A stretch of DNA of 53,267 bases from assembly GCA_019455085.1 (NCBI GenBank), contig JACFNA010000002.1, positions 1 through 53,267 of the forward strand, in the 5' to 3' direction. Shown here piece after piece: positions 21,735 through 32,271 of the stretch (positions are counted from its first letter, which is position 1; the number at the start of each line of letters is the position of its first letter). The position numbers and the translations under genes were made by a program. Source of the stretch: Chitinophagaceae bacterium. Lineage in GTDB: Bacteria > Bacteroidota > Bacteroidia > Chitinophagales > Chitinophagaceae. The notes beneath the pieces were generated by a model. That model saw nothing but the letters and a program-made list of their open reading frames with translations. It had not been told where the DNA came from and did not search any database.

Positions 21735-21909
21735 TAAAATCAGTTGCTGTTTGGAATGGGTAAAATGCAGAACAGCACTGCAAACGATTTTTTCCCTAAT
21801 GAGATGTGTCTGCTAAGACCACTTCCATAATTACATTCTCCACCTGACAGGTATTGGCCAAATGCTCTCACTGAAAAATCTTACCTTGTAAGTGGAAATT
21901 GCAAATAAT

Positions 21910-22878
21910 ATGGACACAGAAGCGCTTCAGCAATCTTTTAATGAAAAGATAGATAAAGACATCAGGATAGAGCCCAAAGACTGGATGCCCGCAGACTACC
22001 GCAAGACGCTGATAAGACAGATCGGCCAGCACGCTCATAGTGAAATTGTGGGGATGCTGCCGGAGGCTAACTGGATAACCCGCGCACCCACCTTGCGGCG
22101 AAAGTGTATCCTGATAGCTAAAGTACAGGACGAAGCCGGGCATGGTTTGTATCTGTATTGCGCTGCGGAAACACTCAACATTACCCGCGAAGAAATGACG
22201 GAGCAGCTACTAACCGGCAAAGCAAAATACAGTTCCATCTTCAACTATCCTACCTTATCATGGGCAGACATGGGTGCCATCGGCTGGCTGGTGGACGGCG
22301 CGGCTATCATCAACCAGATTCCGCTGTGCCGCACATCGTACGGCCCTTATGCACGTGGGATGGTGCGTATTTGTAAAGAAGAAAGCTTTCACCAGCGACA
22401 GGGATTTGATATCCTTCTTTCATTATGCCGTGGCTCAGAAGCACAAAAAGCAATGGCACAGGATGCGCTTAACCGCTGGTGGTGGCCCAGCCTGATGATG
22501 TTTGGCCCCCGCGATGCCGATTCACCACACACCATACAAAGTATGAAGTGGAAGATCAAGCGATTCACAAACGATGAATTGCGCCAGAAGTTTGTCGATA
22601 TGTGTGCCCAGCAGGTGGAGGTGCTCGGGCTACAGATTCCCGACCCCGAACTGAAGTGGAATGAAGCACGCGGGCACTATGACTTCGGTGAAATACACTG
22701 GGACGAATTCTGGAACGTAGTAAAGGGGAATGGTCCCTGCAACAAGGAAAGAATAGCGGCAAGAACCAGGGCGCATGAAGAGGGTGAATGGGTAAGACGG
22801 GCTGCGCTGGCTTACGCACAAAAACAAAAATCAGGAATTTCTGAAAGTCAAACCGCAAAAGCAACTATAAAAGAATAA
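21910..22878 (+). CDS. paaA: Phenylacetyl-CoA epoxidase subunit A
   Basis: [30 protein letters not shown] and [11 protein letters not shown]. The start could be GTG 21892. Confidence 0.97.
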
Positions 22879-22882
22879 ACTT

Positions 22883-23161
22883 ATGGAACAACCACTTTGG
22901 GAAGTATTTATCAGAAGCCGCCAGGGGCTCGATCACAAGCATGTAGGCAGCCTGCATGCCGCGGATGCTAAAATGGCTATCGAAAGCGCGCGCGACGTAT
23001 ATACCCGCCGGATGGAAGGGGTGAGTATTTGGGTAGTAGAATCAAAGCATATCCATGCATCCAATCCGGAAGAAGCGGGCAGCTTTTTCGATCCTGCCGA
23101 AGATAAAATATACCGGCATCCGACTTTTTATAAATTACCCGATGAGGTAGAATATATGTAA
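22883..23161 (+). CDS. paaB: Phenylacetyl-CoA epoxidase subunit B
   Basis: PLWEVFIRS, HVGSLHA, ARDVYTRR.EGVSIWVV and YRHPTFY. Confidence 0.97.
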   Translation: MEQPLWEVFIRSRQGLDHKHVGSLHAADAKMAIESARDVYTRRMEGVSIWVVESKHIHASNPEEAGSFFDPAEDKIYRHPTFYKLPDEVEYM

Positions 23162-23167
23162 TTACCT

Positions 23168-23941
23168 ATGCACGGAGACAACACAACTGACTATCTATTG
23201 TTCCTCGCCGACAGCTCACTGATAATGGGGCAACGGCTTAGCGAATGGACCGGCCACGGACCCATGCTGGAGCAGGATATCGCCATTACCAACATCTCGC
23301 TCGACACCATAGGGCAGGCCCGATATTTTTATCAGTTAGCCGCAAAAAGGCAGAATGAAAAGGCCGGTGGCTCCGAAGTCACTGAAGACACACTGGCTTA
23401 CCTGAGAGACGCCCATCAATACAGAAACTTGCTTCTGACCGAACTGCCCAACGGCGACTGGGGACAGACCATCCTCAAAATATACTTCTATGCCAACTGG
23501 CAAAAACTGATTTATGGCAAATTGATTTACACATCAGATAAAGACATAGCGGCTATAGCCGATAAAGCCCTCAAAGAGGTGCAATACCATGTAAACTGGA
23601 GCAGTGATTGGGTGAAGCGACTGGGCGACGGTACTGCAGAAAGCCATGAAAGAATGGAAAGAGCGCTCGAATACCTCTGGCCCTATACCGGAGAAATGTT
23701 TATGGAAACCGACTACGAAAGCCCGCAATTTGAACGAGACAAAGACTTTTCTTTAGATACTATCAGGAAGGAATGGACAGAAGAGGTGTATCACACCTTA
23801 CAGGAGGCTACACTTACGCTGCCACAAGCCGATACCTTCATGCACAAAGGAGGCAAAAAGGGTGTACACACCGAATATCTCGGATATATCCTGGCTGAAA
23901 TGCAATTCTTGCAAAGAGCCTATCCGGGATGCGAATGGTAA
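23168..23941 (+). CDS. paaC: Phenylacetyl-CoA epoxidase subunit C
   Basis: QRLSEWTGHGP.LEQDIA, KEVQYH, RLGDGT.ESH and EMQFLQRAYPG.EW. Confidence 0.96.
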   Translation: MHGDNTTDYLLFLADSSLIMGQRLSEWTGHGPMLEQDIAITNISLDTIGQARYFYQLAAKRQNEKAGGSEVTEDTLAYLRDAHQYRNLLLTELPNGDWGQTILKIYFYANWQKLIYGKLIYTSDKDIAAIADKALKEVQYHVNWSSDWVKRLGDGTAESHERMERALEYLWPYTGEMFMETDYESPQFERDKDFSLDTIRKEWTEEVYHTLQEATLTLPQADTFMHKGGKKGVHTEYLGYILAEMQFLQRAYPGCEW

Positions 23942-23961
23942 AAACACAATGCTAAAGCAGA

Positions 23962-24462
23962 GTGACAATGGAAACAGAAACACGCGATATTACTATAACA
24001 GATATACGTAAATTATTGGATGAGGTAACAGATCCGGAAATTCCCGTAATATCCATACATGATCTTGGCGTGTTGAGAGATGTAAGAAAAGAAGGGGACA
24101 CCTTCGTCATCACCATCACACCCACCTACAGCGGATGCCCGGCGATGGATATGATCACGCTCAACATTCATGGAAAACTAAGGGCACACCATATCCCCCA
24201 TTTCAAAGTAGAGACACAATTAGCCCCGGCCTGGACAACCGATTGGATGACCGATGAGGGAAAAAGAAAACTAAAGGAATTCGGGATTACTCCCCCAATG
24301 GGTAGCAAAGGAAGCGAAGACCTGATCAATCGTCACCCGCCTTGCCCTTTCTGCAATTCAGAAAACACAGAACTTGTCAGCGCCTTTGGCTCTACGGCCT
24401 GTAAAGCCCTGTTCAGGTGCAGGGACTGCTCCGAGCCATTTGATTATTTTAAGTGTCATTAA
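23962..24462 (+). CDS. paaD: Phenylacetyl-CoA epoxidase subunit D (Fe-S assembly-like)
   Basis: DPEIPV.SI.DLG, TPTYSGCPAM, PAWTTDW, FGSTACK and EPFDYFKCH. The start may be ATG 23968. Confidence 0.95.
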   Translation: MTMETETRDITITDIRKLLDEVTDPEIPVISIHDLGVLRDVRKEGDTFVITITPTYSGCPAMDMITLNIHGKLRAHHIPHFKVETQLAPAWTTDWMTDEGKRKLKEFGITPPMGSKGSEDLINRHPPCPFCNSENTELVSAFGSTACKALFRCRDCSEPFDYFKCH

Positions 24463-27003: not shown

Positions 27004-27378
27004 ATGAGAATCACACCGGACAATAAGCTTAAGCGACTCATCATTATAGGCGACAGGGTATTAATAAGACCACATAGGCCCGAAGAACGGACATCTACCG
27101 GCCTCTATCTGCCTCCCGGTGTCTATGAAAAAGAAAAAGTACAACAGGGGTATGTATTAAAAACAGGCCCGGGATATGCAATCCCTACCCCTGTAGAGGA
27201 GGAGGAATCATGGAAACCCGAAGAAGAACAGGTCAAATATATTCCACTCCAGGCACGCGAAGGCGATCTGGCCATCTTTCTTGTGAGCGGCGCCACCGAA
27301 GTGATGTACGAAGGCGATAAGTATTTCATTGTCCCACAGAGTGCCATACTGATGCTGGAAAGGGAAGAAGAGATGTGA
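27004..27378 (+). CDS. GroES-family co-chaperonin-like protein (no adjacent groEL)
   Basis: GDRVLI, RTSTGLYLP, G.V.KTGPG and EGD.AIF...ILM follow the Cpn10 pattern, with an acidic insertion. Confidence 0.8.
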   Translation: MRITPDNKLKRLIIIGDRVLIRPHRPEERTSTGLYLPPGVYEKEKVQQGYVLKTGPGYAIPTPVEEEESWKPEEEQVKYIPLQAREGDLAIFLVSGATEVMYEGDKYFIVPQSAILMLEREEEM

Positions 27379-27914
27379 GGGGGTTTGATCGATTTCCCGC
27401 TTTTATTTTTCCTTTTTCTAAATACCCATTCATTCAGGCGTTTACCACAACTAATCAGAGAATTTAAATTCACAATAAATTCTTTATGAAAACACTGCTT
27501 AACCCCTCGGTATTGAGCACACAATCCACATAAGGCAATACAATTAACCGGGGTTGACACTAAGAAAACTGAGTAAAGAATTGCCTGAATTTAAGGCGTC
27601 AAAATAACCTTTTTAATACGCTCTTCATAAAACAGTACTTTCATGTTGCTTCATTGATTTTTTCCTTTGGATTAAAAGTAAAAACTAGCAACAGTCTGTA
27701 TGCTGCGTTGAAAAATCAAAGAAAAAATTTTAAATAATAAAACATTTATCTATTTTTACAATGCATCACGAATCCTTTAAATAGGTACCAACCGAGCAGT
27801 GAACGCCACGGTGGTGAACGATGCGGGCAGGAGATGCCAAAATTGTTCATACATTGTCTCTTTGACTCCGTATTGTTCCGTAATGCAGTTTATTAATAAT
27901 TTAAAAACTGTCAC

Positions 27915-29369
27915 ATGGAACCCAATCAAAAAAATTATCCTCACGGTTTTCTCTCAGAAATGGGCATCTTCGGTTTCGAAGAAATCGAACCATTGATTCT
28001 GTCAGCATTAGTTACAGAAGACCCTCTGTTGCTTATTGGTAAGTCTGGCACCGGAAAAACACACTTGCTTAATGGCCTTTCGGAAGCCCTGGGTTTAAAG
28101 CACCGCCACTACAATGCCAGTCTCATCTCGTTTGATGATCTTATTGGCTTTCCCTATCCCGCTGAAAACCGGGAAAGTATTAAGTTTCTACCCACCCCAG
28201 CCTCTGTATGGGAGGCAGAGTCCGTACTCTTTGACGAAATCAGCCGTTGCAAACCCGAAATCCAAAACAAGTTCTTTTCAATTCTCTATGAGAGAAAAAT
28301 TCTGGGTTTAACCCTTGAAAAATTAAGGTACCGATGGGCTGCCATGAATCCATTCGGGTTTGACGCAAACGAAAACGGTGAAAATTATAGTGGCTCAGAG
28401 CCTCTTGATCCTGCTCTTGCCGATCGGTTTGCTTTTATTATGGAAGTACCCGACTGGCGCGATCTTAAGCCTCATGAACAGGAGGCCATCATCAATTCGC
28501 TTTCCTCTTCGTCCAATACACGTATATATGAAGAGTTGAAAAATTTCATCCGCTCCACCAAACGGCGATTTGAGGAGGTGATAGCCAATCCTGATGCAGA
28601 GATTGCTTCCTATTGCCGCATTGTGGCCAGCCTGATCTCCGAAGCAGATTTCCGTTTTTCTCCCCGCCGCGCTAAACAGTTAGTCCGTAATATCTCTGCT
28701 CTCCTGTGTGTGGCAGGGGAACTGGGTTACGACACTTCCGACAAAAAGAGGTACAATCTATTTAAACTGGCCCTCCGGAATAGCATACCCCAACGGTCAT
28801 ACGTTGAAAGTGTTCCCGATCACATACCCAATTCGGTACACAAAGAAGCAATAAGGATGATCTCCGAAACGAACAGAACGGATCGTTGGGTCTCGGAATT
28901 TCTGACAGATAAATCAATACCCAGGTGTATCGAAAAACTTCTTGATAAAAAGGTAGATATACACACCAAAAGTATTGCTGTTATACAATACTTAAATAAA
29001 AGGTCTGCAGAACAAAAAGCACTGTTTTCCTTCGTACTGTTTCCGGCGGCATCTGAGTTGGGCCTATTGACCGAGGATGCATTGAGTATCATGGGAAACA
29101 TTGCAACCAGCATTTACGAAGTCAACGGTTCCATTAAATGGAATGAGACCCGGTATTCGTCAAATCATCCACAATGGTCCGAATGCCTTCAGGTTTTGGA
29201 TCGGATTCCCAAAAGTGAAAAAATGAAAAAGACCAGAGCCAGACAGCTTTTCCTCCATCTTATCTCTGAAAATATTATGATTTCCCCTCCCGAATTCCTT
29301 GAAAAGCAACTCGATGCCTGCTTTTCTAAAATGGAAGTACTCCTAAATACTAATGCGGAATTAAACTAA
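27915..29369 (+). CDS. MoxR-family AAA+ ATPase with C-terminal extension
   Basis: Walker A GKSGTGKT, Walker B VLFDEISR, sensor-1 WAAMNP, Arg-finger PLDPALADRF and sensor-2 SPRR. Confidence 0.9.
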   Translation: MEPNQKNYPHGFLSEMGIFGFEEIEPLILSALVTEDPLLLIGKSGTGKTHLLNGLSEALGLKHRHYNASLISFDDLIGFPYPAENRESIKFLPTPASVWEAESVLFDEISRCKPEIQNKFFSILYERKILGLTLEKLRYRWAAMNPFGFDANENGENYSGSEPLDPALADRFAFIMEVPDWRDLKPHEQEAIINSLSSSSNTRIYEELKNFIRSTKRRFEEVIANPDAEIASYCRIVASLISEADFRFSPRRAKQLVRNISALLCVAGELGYDTSDKKRYNLFKLALRNSIPQRSYVESVPDHIPNSVHKEAIRMISETNRTDRWVSEFLTDKSIPRCIEKLLDKKVDIHTKSIAVIQYLNKRSAEQKALFSFVLFPAASELGLLTEDALSIMGNIATSIYEVNGSIKWNETRYSSNHPQWSECLQVLDRIPKSEKMKKTRARQLFLHLISENIMISPPEFLEKQLDACFSKMEVLLNTNAELN

Positions 29370-29373
29370 TGTC

Positions 29374-29838
29374 ATGACAGAAATGAACCCAAACACGGCG
29401 GGGCCGGGTTTTGTAAACTATCTCCAAAATACCGGCGCACCACAAAGCCGCGTACGGGTAGAACATGTGAACTCCTCAATGCTAACTCCGGATATCATAC
29501 GCGGAGCAGAATACACAATAAACCTGAAGATACCTGACAACATAATGGATATTGAAAAGTGGTTACTCAACAAAGCAAAACGACTTAAGCTAAGCGATTG
29601 GCAGGAAATTGCAATCAGCCTGCACGTGCCTCAATCAAGAATGATAGCATTTCCGTATAAAACGAATAGCCATAATATTTATAGTGATTCAGATATTCTC
29701 TTTGCTGCTGCTATCCTGTCGCGAACCAGCGGGTGTAGTTATCTTCCGACAACCAGGGGGGTATTCACCAGAAAACGCCTTAACCGCTCATTAAAACTTA
29801 TCACTATCAATATTGACGCTTTCTATGAACTGGACTAA
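29374..29838 (+). CDS. Hypothetical protein (154 aa) within the MoxR-vWA-MetK operon
   Basis: ORF starts 4 nt after the MoxR stop and overlaps the start of the next gene. No recognised motif. Confidence 0.7.
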   Translation: MTEMNPNTAGPGFVNYLQNTGAPQSRVRVEHVNSSMLTPDIIRGAEYTINLKIPDNIMDIEKWLLNKAKRLKLSDWQEIAISLHVPQSRMIAFPYKTNSHNIYSDSDILFAAAILSRTSGCSYLPTTRGVFTRKRLNRSLKLITINIDAFYELD

Positions 29839-31129
29839 AAAATATATAACCGATATTATTGAAGATCTGGCCGAAGAAAATGTTATTGCCTGCCGAGCAT
29901 TATTCAGGATTACAAGAATTGACTTCACCACGAATGTGCCGACCCTTGCCGTCAGCCTTTCGGAAAAACCCACTTTGTGCATTAATCAGAAATTCCTGCA
30001 AGAATATGCACATTCAGAAAACGATATAAAATGCCTGCTTCTGCATGAATTCCTACATGTCATGTTGCTCCACACCGAAAAGTATCAATTGTCAAACCCT
30101 CTTTTGAATATTGCCCTTGATGCTATAATCAATAGTATAATTCATCGCGTTTATGGGCTGTCATTGTCCGGGTTCTTTAATAGGTTTTATGCCGGAACCG
30201 GAGTCGACTGTTTACTAAGACCTCAGGATCCGGCAATCAACTCTTCAAAAGAAATCAACTGGAAGGAAATTCATAATGAAATTTATTGGGGAAAATACGC
30301 TGCTGATGATTTATTCGAACTCCTGGAGTATTTGTATTTTAAAAAACTGACCGGTAACTGCCAGGGCATTACTTTAATTGGTAACCATGAAGATCAAAAA
30401 TCTACTATCAGCCCCCAAAACAGTGCCTTACTGGATGGGATCCTAAAGAGTATGGACGGAAAAGGAATATGGAGTAAGGCAAAGGCTCGTGGTATAAGCT
30501 TTGACCATCAGGAAGACATCATTCAAATTAAAAGGCAAAAAATTGCTCAGTGGAGAAAATCCGCCTGGAAGATTCTCAAAAAATGTCTTCAGCCTGATAA
30601 ACGGGGAAAGACAGAAATCAGGCCGGACACTTCTATGATGCCTATCCTGAACAGCCACAACAGACGGGCTTTTACCCTGCTTGAAACCAGTGATATCATC
30701 CCGTTTTGCCCAATTTCTTCCTATCGAATTAAGCCAAGGGAATTAGCTACTATTTATCTTGATGTAAGTGGATCTATGGACGGAGAATTAGAACAAATAG
30801 CCGCGCTCCTTTCTTCATTTAAGGATTCTATCCGGTTTCCAATACATGTGTTCTCAAACGAAGTGAAAGACGCAAAACTTAAAGAGGATAAATTAATTTA
30901 TGATTCTACCGGCGGAACATCAATAGCCTGTGTATTCGAGCACATGAAGAAAAATAAAGTCCCCAAAAGTGTAATTGTTACCGATGGTTATACAGAACGC
31001 ATTACTCCGGAAATGTTATGGGGTATTGAAGTCAATAATATCCGGGCAATTATTTCCTATGATGGAAACCCAGCGGAATTCAGCTCAAATAAAATTGAAT
31101 ATCATCAACTTGAAAATTTTAGAAAATGA
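29825..31129 (+). CDS. DUF2201-type protein: N-terminal HEXXH metallopeptidase-like domain plus C-terminal vWA domain
   Basis: LLLHEFLHVMLLH and NIALDAIIN; MIDAS elements YLDVSGSM, GGT and VTDGY. ATG 29825 is preferred over TTG 29813. Confidence 0.85.
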   Translation: MNWTKKYITDIIEDLAEENVIACRALFRITRIDFTTNVPTLAVSLSEKPTLCINQKFLQEYAHSENDIKCLLLHEFLHVMLLHTEKYQLSNPLLNIALDAIINSIIHRVYGLSLSGFFNRFYAGTGVDCLLRPQDPAINSSKEINWKEIHNEIYWGKYAADDLFELLEYLYFKKLTGNCQGITLIGNHEDQKSTISPQNSALLDGILKSMDGKGIWSKAKARGISFDHQEDIIQIKRQKIAQWRKSAWKILKKCLQPDKRGKTEIRPDTSMMPILNSHNRRAFTLLETSDIIPFCPISSYRIKPRELATIYLDVSGSMDGELEQIAALLSSFKDSIRFPIHVFSNEVKDAKLKEDKLIYDSTGGTSIACVFEHMKKNKVPKSVIVTDGYTERITPEMLWGIEVNNIRAIISYDGNPAEFSSNKIEYHQLENFRK

Positions 31130-32271
31130 AAAGATTCTCTGAAGCAGTTCTGAACGGACATCCCGATAAGTTTTGCGACCTGATAGCCGACCGTATTATT
31201 CGTCATCTTTATAAAACGGCAGGCGATGTGTATGCTCAAATAGAAGTAAGCACATGGTCTGACTATATATTCCTTACCGGCTGTGCAGTCACCCGGTCAA
31301 AAGTAAACCTGAACGTAAGGGATATTATTGTAGAATTAGGTTATGAAATCGGTTACACTCCTCATAATCACATTAATGTAGAACAATACCAAATCCGGGA
31401 TCATTTGTGCCGCATTACCGGAGACCCGGATGATTGGAACAATTTTTCAAATGATCAGTGCATCATTACTGCATACGCTGGTTACGACGACAAAACTCAT
31501 TTTCTTCCGCCCGAGCACTTTTTAGTCTGGTATTTAAGAGAATCATTGATTCGTTCGCTTCATGGCGGCCTGCTTCAGGATCAGGGGCCGGATGGTAAAC
31601 TGCTTGTAATCATACAGGAAGATAACGAAGGTTGGCGACCGGAGAAAATCCTTGTAACACTACAACAAGAGCCGTCAATCTCGTTTATAGACTTTACCAT
31701 TAATCTGAATCGGGTATTACATGAAGCCTGGGATCAGCTGCGCACCCATGACAGGCGATGGAAGGGATTCTGGCATGATATCCAGGTAATCATTAATCCT
31801 AATGGCCCTTTGATAAACGGGGGAAGTGATGGAGATAATGGGCAGACCGGACGTAAATTGGTTATGGATTATTACGGTCCCCGTATTGCTTTAGGAGGTG
31901 GGGCAATCTATGGTAAAAATCTTGCACACATCGATAGGTTAGGAGCCTTTAATGCGCGCCGCTATGCTATAGATCTGGTGCGTAACGGTTCAAAAGACGC
32001 GATCGTAGAATTATGCTATGCACCGGGAATGAAGAGCCCCCTATCAATCCAAATCAAGTCAGAGAAAAGACACCCGGTACCGGGCAATCAATACTTTGAT
32101 TTTAATGAAATGAGGAAAAAGTTGGATGCTTCTCTTTTAGATTACGACCTTATTGGGTTAGGGACATTCTATAACCATAGTCTATCATTCAACCACAGAA
32201 CGGAATCTTCTATAAATGCAGGTTCCGGCTGGGATATCCCGATAATGAGTAAACCGGAAATTAGTGTTTAG
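31126..32271 (+). CDS. Divergent S-adenosylmethionine synthetase (MetK) homolog
   Basis: GHPDK, PDGK, INPNG...GG.DGD.GQTGRKLVMDYYG and GGGAIYGK...IDR motifs. ATGA overlap with the vWA gene. Several canonical residues are substituted. Confidence 0.85.
   Translation: MKRFSEAVLNGHPDKFCDLIADRIIRHLYKTAGDVYAQIEVSTWSDYIFLTGCAVTRSKVNLNVRDIIVELGYEIGYTPHNHINVEQYQIRDHLCRITGDPDDWNNFSNDQCIITAYAGYDDKTHFLPPEHFLVWYLRESLIRSLHGGLLQDQGPDGKLLVIIQEDNEGWRPEKILVTLQQEPSISFIDFTINLNRVLHEAWDQLRTHDRRWKGFWHDIQVIINPNGPLINGGSDGDNGQTGRKLVMDYYGPRIALGGGAIYGKNLAHIDRLGAFNARRYAIDLVRNGSKDAIVELCYAPGMKSPLSIQIKSEKRHPVPGNQYFDFNEMRKKLDASLLDYDLIGLGTFYNHSLSFNHRTESSINAGSGWDIPIMSKPEISV

Follow-up and report, generated by a model that had tools for sequence, protein, structure and literature searches.

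A MoxR/peptidase-vWA trio that travels with a methionine adenosyltransferase: a four-gene cassette linked to SAM riboswitches in Chitinophagaceae and other bacteria

In a contig stretch of 53,267 nucleotides from a Chitinophagaceae bacterium (JACFNA010000002.1, hereafter the window), four adjoining genes encode a MoxR-type AAA+ ATPase, a small protein, a metallopeptidase joined to a vWA domain, and a divergent paralogue of methionine adenosyltransferase (MAT). This cassette is real, conserved and apparently undescribed. The trio of MoxR, small protein and peptidase-vWA protein always travels with one MAT type or the other, either the divergent paralogue or an ordinary MetK, and a riboswitch for S-adenosylmethionine (SAM) lies in front of MoxR. 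The best explanation, to which we give roughly an even chance, is an inducible SAM-rescue module in which a client-dedicated MoxR-vWA remodeller would serve a backup MAT. Compared loci and genomes are labelled L### and G###, respectively. The four genes are:

27915–29369, plus strand: MoxR-type AAA+ ATPase, 484 amino acids (AAA_5/AAA_3 profile matches, Walker motifs)
29374–29838, plus strand: small protein of 154 amino acids, the second gene (no family match; conserved across relatives)
29825–31129, plus strand: HEXXH metallopeptidase-vWA protein, DUF2201-like, 434 amino acids counted from ATG (weak DUF2201_N and DUF2201 vWA matches, intact motifs)
31126–32271, plus strand: divergent MAT paralogue, 381 amino acids (S-AdoMet_synt_N/C; TIGR01034 below cut-off)

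The open reading frame coordinates confirm the tight same-strand arrangement that the initial annotation had described, with junctions consisting, in order, of a 4-nucleotide gap, a 14-nucleotide overlap and an ATGA overlap. A search with the MAT-like protein yielded 33 loci in GTDB genomes, of which 32 belong to the divergent family and one is an ordinary metK. At all 29 genome loci with sufficient room, the four genes stand in the same fixed order (three of the small-protein genes in this count were recognised by inspection), and the flanks vary between genomes. A MoxR-anchored search of metagenomes kept 80 of 571 loci, 67 of them non-redundant. Among those with room, the small protein was present at 70 of 71, the peptidase-vWA protein at 58 of 58 and the divergent MAT at 36 of 42; the single small-protein miss, L221, is a filter artefact. 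One row each in the synteny, riboswitch, alignment and MetK counts comes from locus L032 of the unpublished genome G328, as does one of the metK remnants described below. The ordinary metK of the window genome lies on a separate contig, and a full MetK over cut-off was found in 28 of 32 carrier genomes, with fragments in three more and none in one. The initial annotation had named three outcomes that would tell against a dedicated system, namely lack of co-occurrence elsewhere, the MetK homolog being the sole housekeeping metK, and universal conservation in relatives without a phage or stress phenotype; none of them was observed.

Trio and MAT occur in two architectures. Of the six metagenome loci that lack the divergent MAT, five carry an ordinary MetK immediately 5′ of MoxR, in some cases with its stop codon overlapping the next start codon, and three Verrucomicrobiota genomes show the same arrangement plus another MetK elsewhere. 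Altogether, a MAT of either type adjoins the trio in 41 of the 42 metagenome loci with room, and the last one is cut by the contig end. In a FastTree analysis, the MoxR proteins of the ordinary-MetK architecture mostly form one clade (support 0.956), with L235 standing apart. The trio-linked ordinary MetKs retain E55 (11/11), Q98 (10/11) and K269 (11/11; E. coli residue numbering, used for all MATs below). The association of the trio with a MAT of either type is the strongest hint that the MAT is the client of the trio and that the two MAT types have similar roles. From this we infer that the trio acts on the MAT, and the earlier proposal that the MetK homolog partners a MoxR/vWA-peptidase machine is strengthened by a MAT being constant beside the trio in genomes and metagenomes alike.

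Some Bacteroidota and Ignavibacteria loci carry an ordinary metK as an accessory gene ahead of the four, with a SAM-I/IV switch of its own. This gene is whole at L015 and L026, and remnants are present at L013, L032 and probably L004. The accessory ordinary MetKs form their own clade in a quick tree. This separate clade was seen in Bacteroidota and Ignavibacteria at L043, L044, L051, L015 and L026, with SAM-I/IV matches at L026, L043 and L051.

The leader of the operon, which the initial annotation had not mentioned, matches the SAM-I/IV riboswitch over the whole model (positions 1–99 of 99) and above the gathering score. It ends 60 bases before the MoxR start and is the sole copy found in its genome by a covariance-model scan. 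Its parts are:

27758–27854, plus strand: SAM-I/IV riboswitch aptamer (Rfam RF01725; 54.7 bits against a gathering score of 41.1, E 2.6e-7)
27763–27767, plus strand: 5′ strand of aptamer helix P1; the pseudoknot pairs 27801–27804 with 27845–27848
27880–27886, plus strand: anti-P1 strand of the expression platform, with 27763–27769 or the MoxR start region as alternative partners

Across 18 leaders, P1 and the pseudoknot are 96% paired, with both-side changes in 6 of 9 pairs, and the helix of anti-P1 with the 5′ strand of P1 is 94% paired, with both-side changes in 4 of 7 pairs, as against 18–58% pairing for slid controls. None of 500 shuffles matched either helix set in pairing and covariation score, a count that is not a probability because the leader rows are related. 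Anti-P1 is predicted to pair with 27763–27769 in the SAM-free, ON state and with the MoxR start region in the SAM-bound, OFF state. When the aptamer was set as SAM-bound in the folding model, blocking anti-P1 opened the start region beyond control blocks in 18 of 24 leaders. Translation of the cassette would thus be ON at low SAM.

A SAM-I/IV match over cut-off lies immediately 5′ of MoxR in 21 of 26 scanned cassette loci. Of the five misses, two (L003, L006) show the motif on inspection by eye, two (L023, L027) are truncated by the end of a contig, and L033 gave no match. A matching leader design was found before the ordinary metK genes at L026, L013, L032 and L051, and the housekeeping metK locus L001 gave no SAM-I/IV match. 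Among 16 mostly more distant metagenome loci, two riboswitches over cut-off were SAM-alpha, a class unrelated to SAM-I/IV; two riboswitch classes thus converge on the cassette. The leader agrees with the description of SAM-I/IV (Weinberg 2010, PMC2864571) in its full-length match and its covarying P1 and pseudoknot, and differs in that the controlled operon begins with MoxR; neither MoxR nor COG0714 is mentioned in the main text and eight supplements of that paper, one of them partial.

Some further arrangements of SAM riboswitches were recorded. Tandem switches occur at L004:612-1329, L005:265-1139, L019:979-1329 and L051:753-1018, where as many as three SAM-I/IV copies lie within 900 bases; at L178:2312-2536, a SAM-alpha switch is directly succeeded by a SAM-I/IV switch. 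Two housekeeping metK loci bear SAM-II long-loop switches. At L007:3301-4508, L017:3515-4587 and L016:2147-1054 (minus strand), SAM-I/IV precedes unrelated genes without a Pfam family. The reading frame at L007, which by its motif resembles a REP-associated transposase, suggests that insertion took place behind a switch that had been duplicated. One branch of the cassette has an open reading frame of about 88 amino acids between the riboswitch and the first gene (L213:1826-2089 and nine further loci: L033, L166, L167, L168, L171, L173, L235, L236, L237). It matches DUF6538 weakly (E 2.5e-4), presumably resembles an integrase arm-type DNA-binding domain, and is a possible fifth gene or regulator.

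The motifs on which the initial annotation relied (Walker A, HEXXH, MIDAS and GHPDK) are intact in the window and invariant or nearly so among relatives. In MoxR, Walker A (GKxGTGKT), Walker B (DE), N145, R171 and SPRR are invariant in 23 sequences, in agreement with a MoxR-type AAA+ ATPase whose Walker motifs, sensor and arginine finger are all intact; its C-terminal domain is helical and belongs to no named family, and a weak bpMoxR match lies below cut-off. In the third protein, the peptidase residues H74, E75, H78 and D99 and the MIDAS residues D313, S315, S317, T365 and D387 are invariant in 26 sequences. This complete MIDAS (DxSxS, T, D) in a co-encoded vWA protein is as expected of a MoxR/vWA pair. 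Both the DUF2201_N and the DUF2201 vWA matches remain below cut-off. The peptidase-vWA profile found no relative in the PDB, and tblastn found no match in INPHARED. The small-protein family comprises 292 clusters at E ≤ 0.001, with lengths of 79–256 amino acids among the 150 listed. The 154-residue protein is modelled with confidence (pLDDT 81) and has no PDB match (Foldseek none at E ≤ 0.001; best Z by VIA-align 3.0), which is not proof of a new fold. A predicted complex of the peptidase-vWA protein with the divergent MAT scored 0.01, which speaks neither for nor against an interaction. Near the cassette, a second, larger vWA protein occurs at L168, L187, L197, L210 and L218, with a MerR-type regulator beside it at L187.

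CbbQ-CbbO, a Rubisco activase, and RavA-ViaA are reportedly client-dedicated MoxR/vWA remodellers. The MoxR-vWA pair NorQ-NorD likewise remodels one target enzyme (PMC13036017). The cassette resembles all three pairs in that an AAA_5 MoxR-type ATPase and a MIDAS-containing vWA protein are encoded beside one enzyme. In contrast to them, its candidate client is a MAT, its vWA domain is fused to an intact HEXXH peptidase, and it includes a small subunit without a fold match, a riboswitch and an extra C-terminal domain on the ATPase. The nearest named relatives of the peptidase-vWA protein belong to group 2.2 jumbo phages, in which a MoxR ATPase is likewise paired with such a two-domain metallopeptidase-vWA protein (PHROG 1297/249 and 1314; E 6e-21 and 3e-11) and a role in virion assembly has been proposed (PMC7824862); the phage side lacks the MAT, the small protein and the riboswitch. 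With the MoxR-vWA ternary systems of biological conflict (Kaur et al. 2020, PMC7159879), the cassette shares the MoxR and vWA core and a patchy distribution. However, it has no VMAP, iSTAND, FtsH or beta-propeller domain and no variable vWA-fused effector: its four-gene content is fixed, lengths are constant and no such domain was found. The main text of PMC7159879 mentions neither MetK nor a riboswitch. PMC545781 contains riboswitch, SAM, MoxR and metK together, but its MoxR belongs to an iron regulon and is unrelated. In agreement with the initial annotation, which knew of no described system with these genes, no MoxR-vWA-MAT or MoxR-DUF2201 combination was found in the literature searched (outside subscription journals and bioRxiv supplements). 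The cassette would work like a client-dedicated MoxR-vWA remodeller but is a member of no catalogued system.

The divergent MAT shares with MetK (TIGR01034) the fold, the GHPDK and GRK motifs and the triphosphate/metal residues. It differs in forming a clade apart, set off by a very long branch (support 100 in a quick tree with 29 of the 152 family members), in replacing E55, Q98, I102, F230 and K269, and in being accessory rather than housekeeping. Its TIGR01034 score is 131 bits against a cut-off of 309.4, which places it outside the MetK equivalog, and its identity to MetK is 24–30%. Nevertheless, the model (pLDDT 85) has the three-domain MAT fold, superposing with Z 31.6 and a root-mean-square deviation of 2.7 over 340 residues on bacterial MAT, and with Z 23.4 on archaeal MAT. 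In an alignment of 152 family sequences, H14, D16 and E42 are each kept in 150 (the remainder being gaps), K17 in 143 and D238 in 151, and D118, D163, K165, R244, K245, K265 and D271 in all 152. We take these residues to be the catalytic histidine and ligands of triphosphate, Mg and K, and K269 to be a SAM-contacting residue. Since the triphosphate/metal residues are kept family-wide, the divergent MAT is very likely an ATP-using enzyme and not a dead decoy, and we infer that it is catalytic. It likely still makes SAM via a rebuilt pocket.

A mechanism for a SAM-rescue module can be sketched from these elements. Low SAM would switch the four-gene operon on through the SAM-I/IV leader. MoxR, as a hexamer, would then join with the small protein and the peptidase-vWA adaptor in a remodelling machine dedicated to one client, a backup SAM synthetase that it would assemble or reactivate; in the window, this client would be the divergent MAT. 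The module is probably triggered when MAT loses its activity or SAM is destroyed, and not by methionine starvation, because the cassette brings no methionine supply gene and duplicates an existing enzyme. The best-known candidate trigger would be a phage SAM lyase, which cleaves SAM and locks MetK in filaments; ATPase and peptidase might then pull off or cut the inhibitor. The leader shared with ordinary metK and the ordinary MetK in the same slot argue for SAM supply and not for a toxic output. They also modify the idea, put forward in the initial annotation, of the MetK homolog as client, effector or sensor decoy: the constant MAT partner favours a close link, whereas the riboswitch and the swap with ordinary MetK weaken the decoy and effector versions.

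Several observations weigh against this SAM-rescue module. Both MAT types occur together at a few loci (full length at L015 and L026), so they are not strictly interchangeable. The known activase pairs lack an intact peptidase, and a toxic or degradative output would be equally possible. As for regulation, 6 of the 24 leaders failed to beat the control blocks, and the ON/OFF direction comes from folding models; a SAM riboswitch over cut-off is present in only 7 of the 16 more distant metagenome loci and in none of genomes G613, G623, G596 and G944, although two of these four hold three sub-threshold matches. In the divergent MATs, E55 is replaced by G, A, S or F in 145 of 152, K269 by His in 150, Q98 by L, I, V or M in 122 and F230 by Leu in 117, a methionine pocket so sharply altered that the substrate may not be methionine. 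I102 also becomes Pro in 132 of 152, whereas ordinary MetKs keep all five residues. In a smaller alignment, Gln at Q98 survives in 4 of 30 rows; the loop around Q98 and I102 aligns poorly. The window MAT has C53, I97, P101, L229 and H268 at these positions. It thus departs at K269 and at E55, Q98, I102 and F230, four of the SAM contacts named in PMC8727953, where H14, D163, R229 and D238 are the others.

These replacements could mean new chemistry, with the adenosyl group passed to another acceptor (a different thioether, or decarboxylated or peptide-bound methionine) or a triphosphatase of the SAM pathway, and with the trio as a maturation or delivery machine. Throughout the family, the residues that contact SAM at its amino-acid end have been exchanged, whereas those on the ATP side stay fixed; the region of the gating loop is shortened and has conserved residues of its own (C95, N109 and W44-S45), and the family stands alone on its long branch. 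We nevertheless hold this explanation to be unlikely, as the trio also serves ordinary MetKs without a divergent copy downstream, a SAM-repressed leader suits a SAM-producing output, and archaeal MATs retain the reaction unchanged with different pocket residues (PMC8727953).

The cassette is rare, being carried by roughly 1% of the genomes sampled, or less: 0 of 300 genomes of the family, 1 of 400 of the phylum and, in the phylum to which the Spartobacteria record G329 belongs, 3 of 400. This agrees with the patchy distribution that had been anticipated. By record titles, the hosts are Bacteroidota, Ignavibacteria, Omnitrophota, Limnochordia, one deltaproteobacterium and Spartobacteria. The nearest named locus, L003, is 96% identical and comes from a Chitinophagaceae genome. 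The only cultured carrier found is Cnuella takakiae, in which the divergent MAT matches lie in two frames (L030:8001-9049) with a break near residue 258, apparently a frameshift or sequencing error. The window copy is an insertion, because the cassette DNA is unmatched in all 18 congeners searched and uvrD and nfu adjoin in 7 of the 11 congener loci fetched. The divergent MAT was not found on the plasmids searched (best 30% identity) or among the best 80 of 600 viral stretches (best 32% identity); many of the phage contigs among these 80 (L068-L147) carry an ordinary metK, in at least two clades.

Such mobility would also fit a general stress chaperone/protease cassette that had come under SAM riboswitches and next to MAT genes by capture on mobile islands, trio and MAT then being functionally unlinked. 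The SAM-I/IV elements before unrelated genes at L007, L016 and L017 imply that the switch itself moves, and the flanks differ between genomes. However, a fixed gene order with overlapping stop and start codons in several phyla, the MAT beside the trio in nearly all metagenome loci with room, and the convergence of two riboswitch classes make this highly improbable.

The initial annotation had also proposed a test for enrichment near defence islands. PADLOC profiles at E 1e-15 were applied to 135 of 160 neighbours at genome loci and 123 of 329 at metagenome loci (hand-picked, longer reading frames favoured), and to 130 of 197 reading frames from 20 arbitrary stretches of carrier genomes as control. 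Per protein, matches were more frequent beside the cassette (17/135 and 11/123, against 4/130), but by locus the difference is weak (15/66 cassette loci against 4/20 control stretches); with generic domain matches removed by judgement, it becomes 12/66 against 1/20. The defence neighbours include type I restriction-modification, BREX PglZ/BrxL, AbiE, MzaDE, Hhe and McrBC, and most loci, the window included, have none. Such a modest enrichment agrees with a mobile island, and a role in defence does not follow from it. PADLOC 2.0 has no system model that matches the four proteins, MoxR giving only short P-loop noise. Genes of the MTA/SAH nucleosidase family lie near the cassette at three loci. 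A HEPN(HepT-like)-CBS protein was found upstream at L010, L017, L153, L159 and L162 (L017 and L162 are near-duplicates); as CBS domains can presumably bind adenosyl ligands, it could be a nucleotide-sensing ribonuclease. Co-occurrence with BREX, tried through PF08665, was rejected because an unrelated protein of about 520 amino acids matched in 28 of 33 carriers and 144 of 151 controls. We take this protein to be PorX. Strong PF08665 matches number 2 in the 33 carriers and 1 among the control matches listed.

The SAM lyase of phage T3 (SAMase) not only cleaves SAM but also inactivates E. coli MAT by forming filaments with it (PMC8406200). Some MetKs are not bound by SAMase, and the lyase reaches higher levels and is more toxic where Lon is missing (10.1101/2023.02.27.530186). 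A backup MAT with an ATPase/peptidase, induced by SAM loss, would counter SAMase, so rescue and anti-phage roles overlap and phage SAM lyases are a plausible trigger. In an anti-phage guard, the riboswitch would sense lyase-caused SAM loss, the MAT-like protein would be bait or sensor, and the machine would arrest or kill the cell or cleave phage proteins. Rarity and patchiness, the surplus of PADLOC matches per protein, the known MoxR-vWA systems in biological conflict (PMC7159879) and the intact peptidase speak for a guard. Yet any mobile island would give such a weak enrichment by locus, the window copy sits among housekeeping genes with no defence gene adjoining, and no PADLOC model recognises the proteins. 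Moreover, a bait needs no complete catalytic set, which is kept across 152 sequences, and ordinary MetKs fill the same slot; we consider a guard quite unlikely. A bolder form of rescue, which we rate as rather unlikely, is counter-counter-defence: the SAM drop from a lyase attack would call up a third-class SAM synthetase that the lyase cannot lock, together with a machine of AAA+ ATPase, metallopeptidase and a subunit of new fold, which would tear lyase-MetK filaments apart and destroy the lyase; restriction and BREX, which depend on SAM, would then continue to function.

The flanking genes of the window copy (uvrD, a groES-like gene encoding Cpn10, and nfu) are as first described. The initial annotation had also called the block visibly AT-richer than its neighbours, which did not hold: its GC content of 0.421 lies at the 24th percentile of 587 genome tiles, the genome as a whole having 0.430, with 0.475 upstream and 0.417 downstream, where genes are equally AT-rich. 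AT-richness of the block is thereby rejected. The GroES-like gene (27004–27378) has an acidic insertion, and a second genome copy is 37% identical; its congener matches stand apart from uvrD-nfu, and the gene may have arrived together with the cassette insertion or next to it. It was rejected as a cassette member, being absent at other loci except the near-identical L003. Phenylacetate degradation genes upstream of uvrD (21892–24462), which we take from sequence to be paaA-D, are ordinary. Sigma-70 promoter and terminator scans gave chance-level results, and no intrinsic terminator is claimed.

MAT has been regarded as a single enzyme, essential and sufficient by itself, whose sequences fall into a bacterial/eukaryotic and an archaeal class. 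The cassette would imply a third class, in which the pocket is rebuilt and a SAM-inducible remodelling machine is dedicated to the enzyme, and would supply the first candidate cellular client for MoxR/peptidase-vWA (DUF2201-like) pairs, which have no solved relative. The divergent MAT is a candidate biocatalyst for SAM analogues, and the cassette as a whole allows a test of whether bacteria hold an inducible answer to phage SAM lyases.

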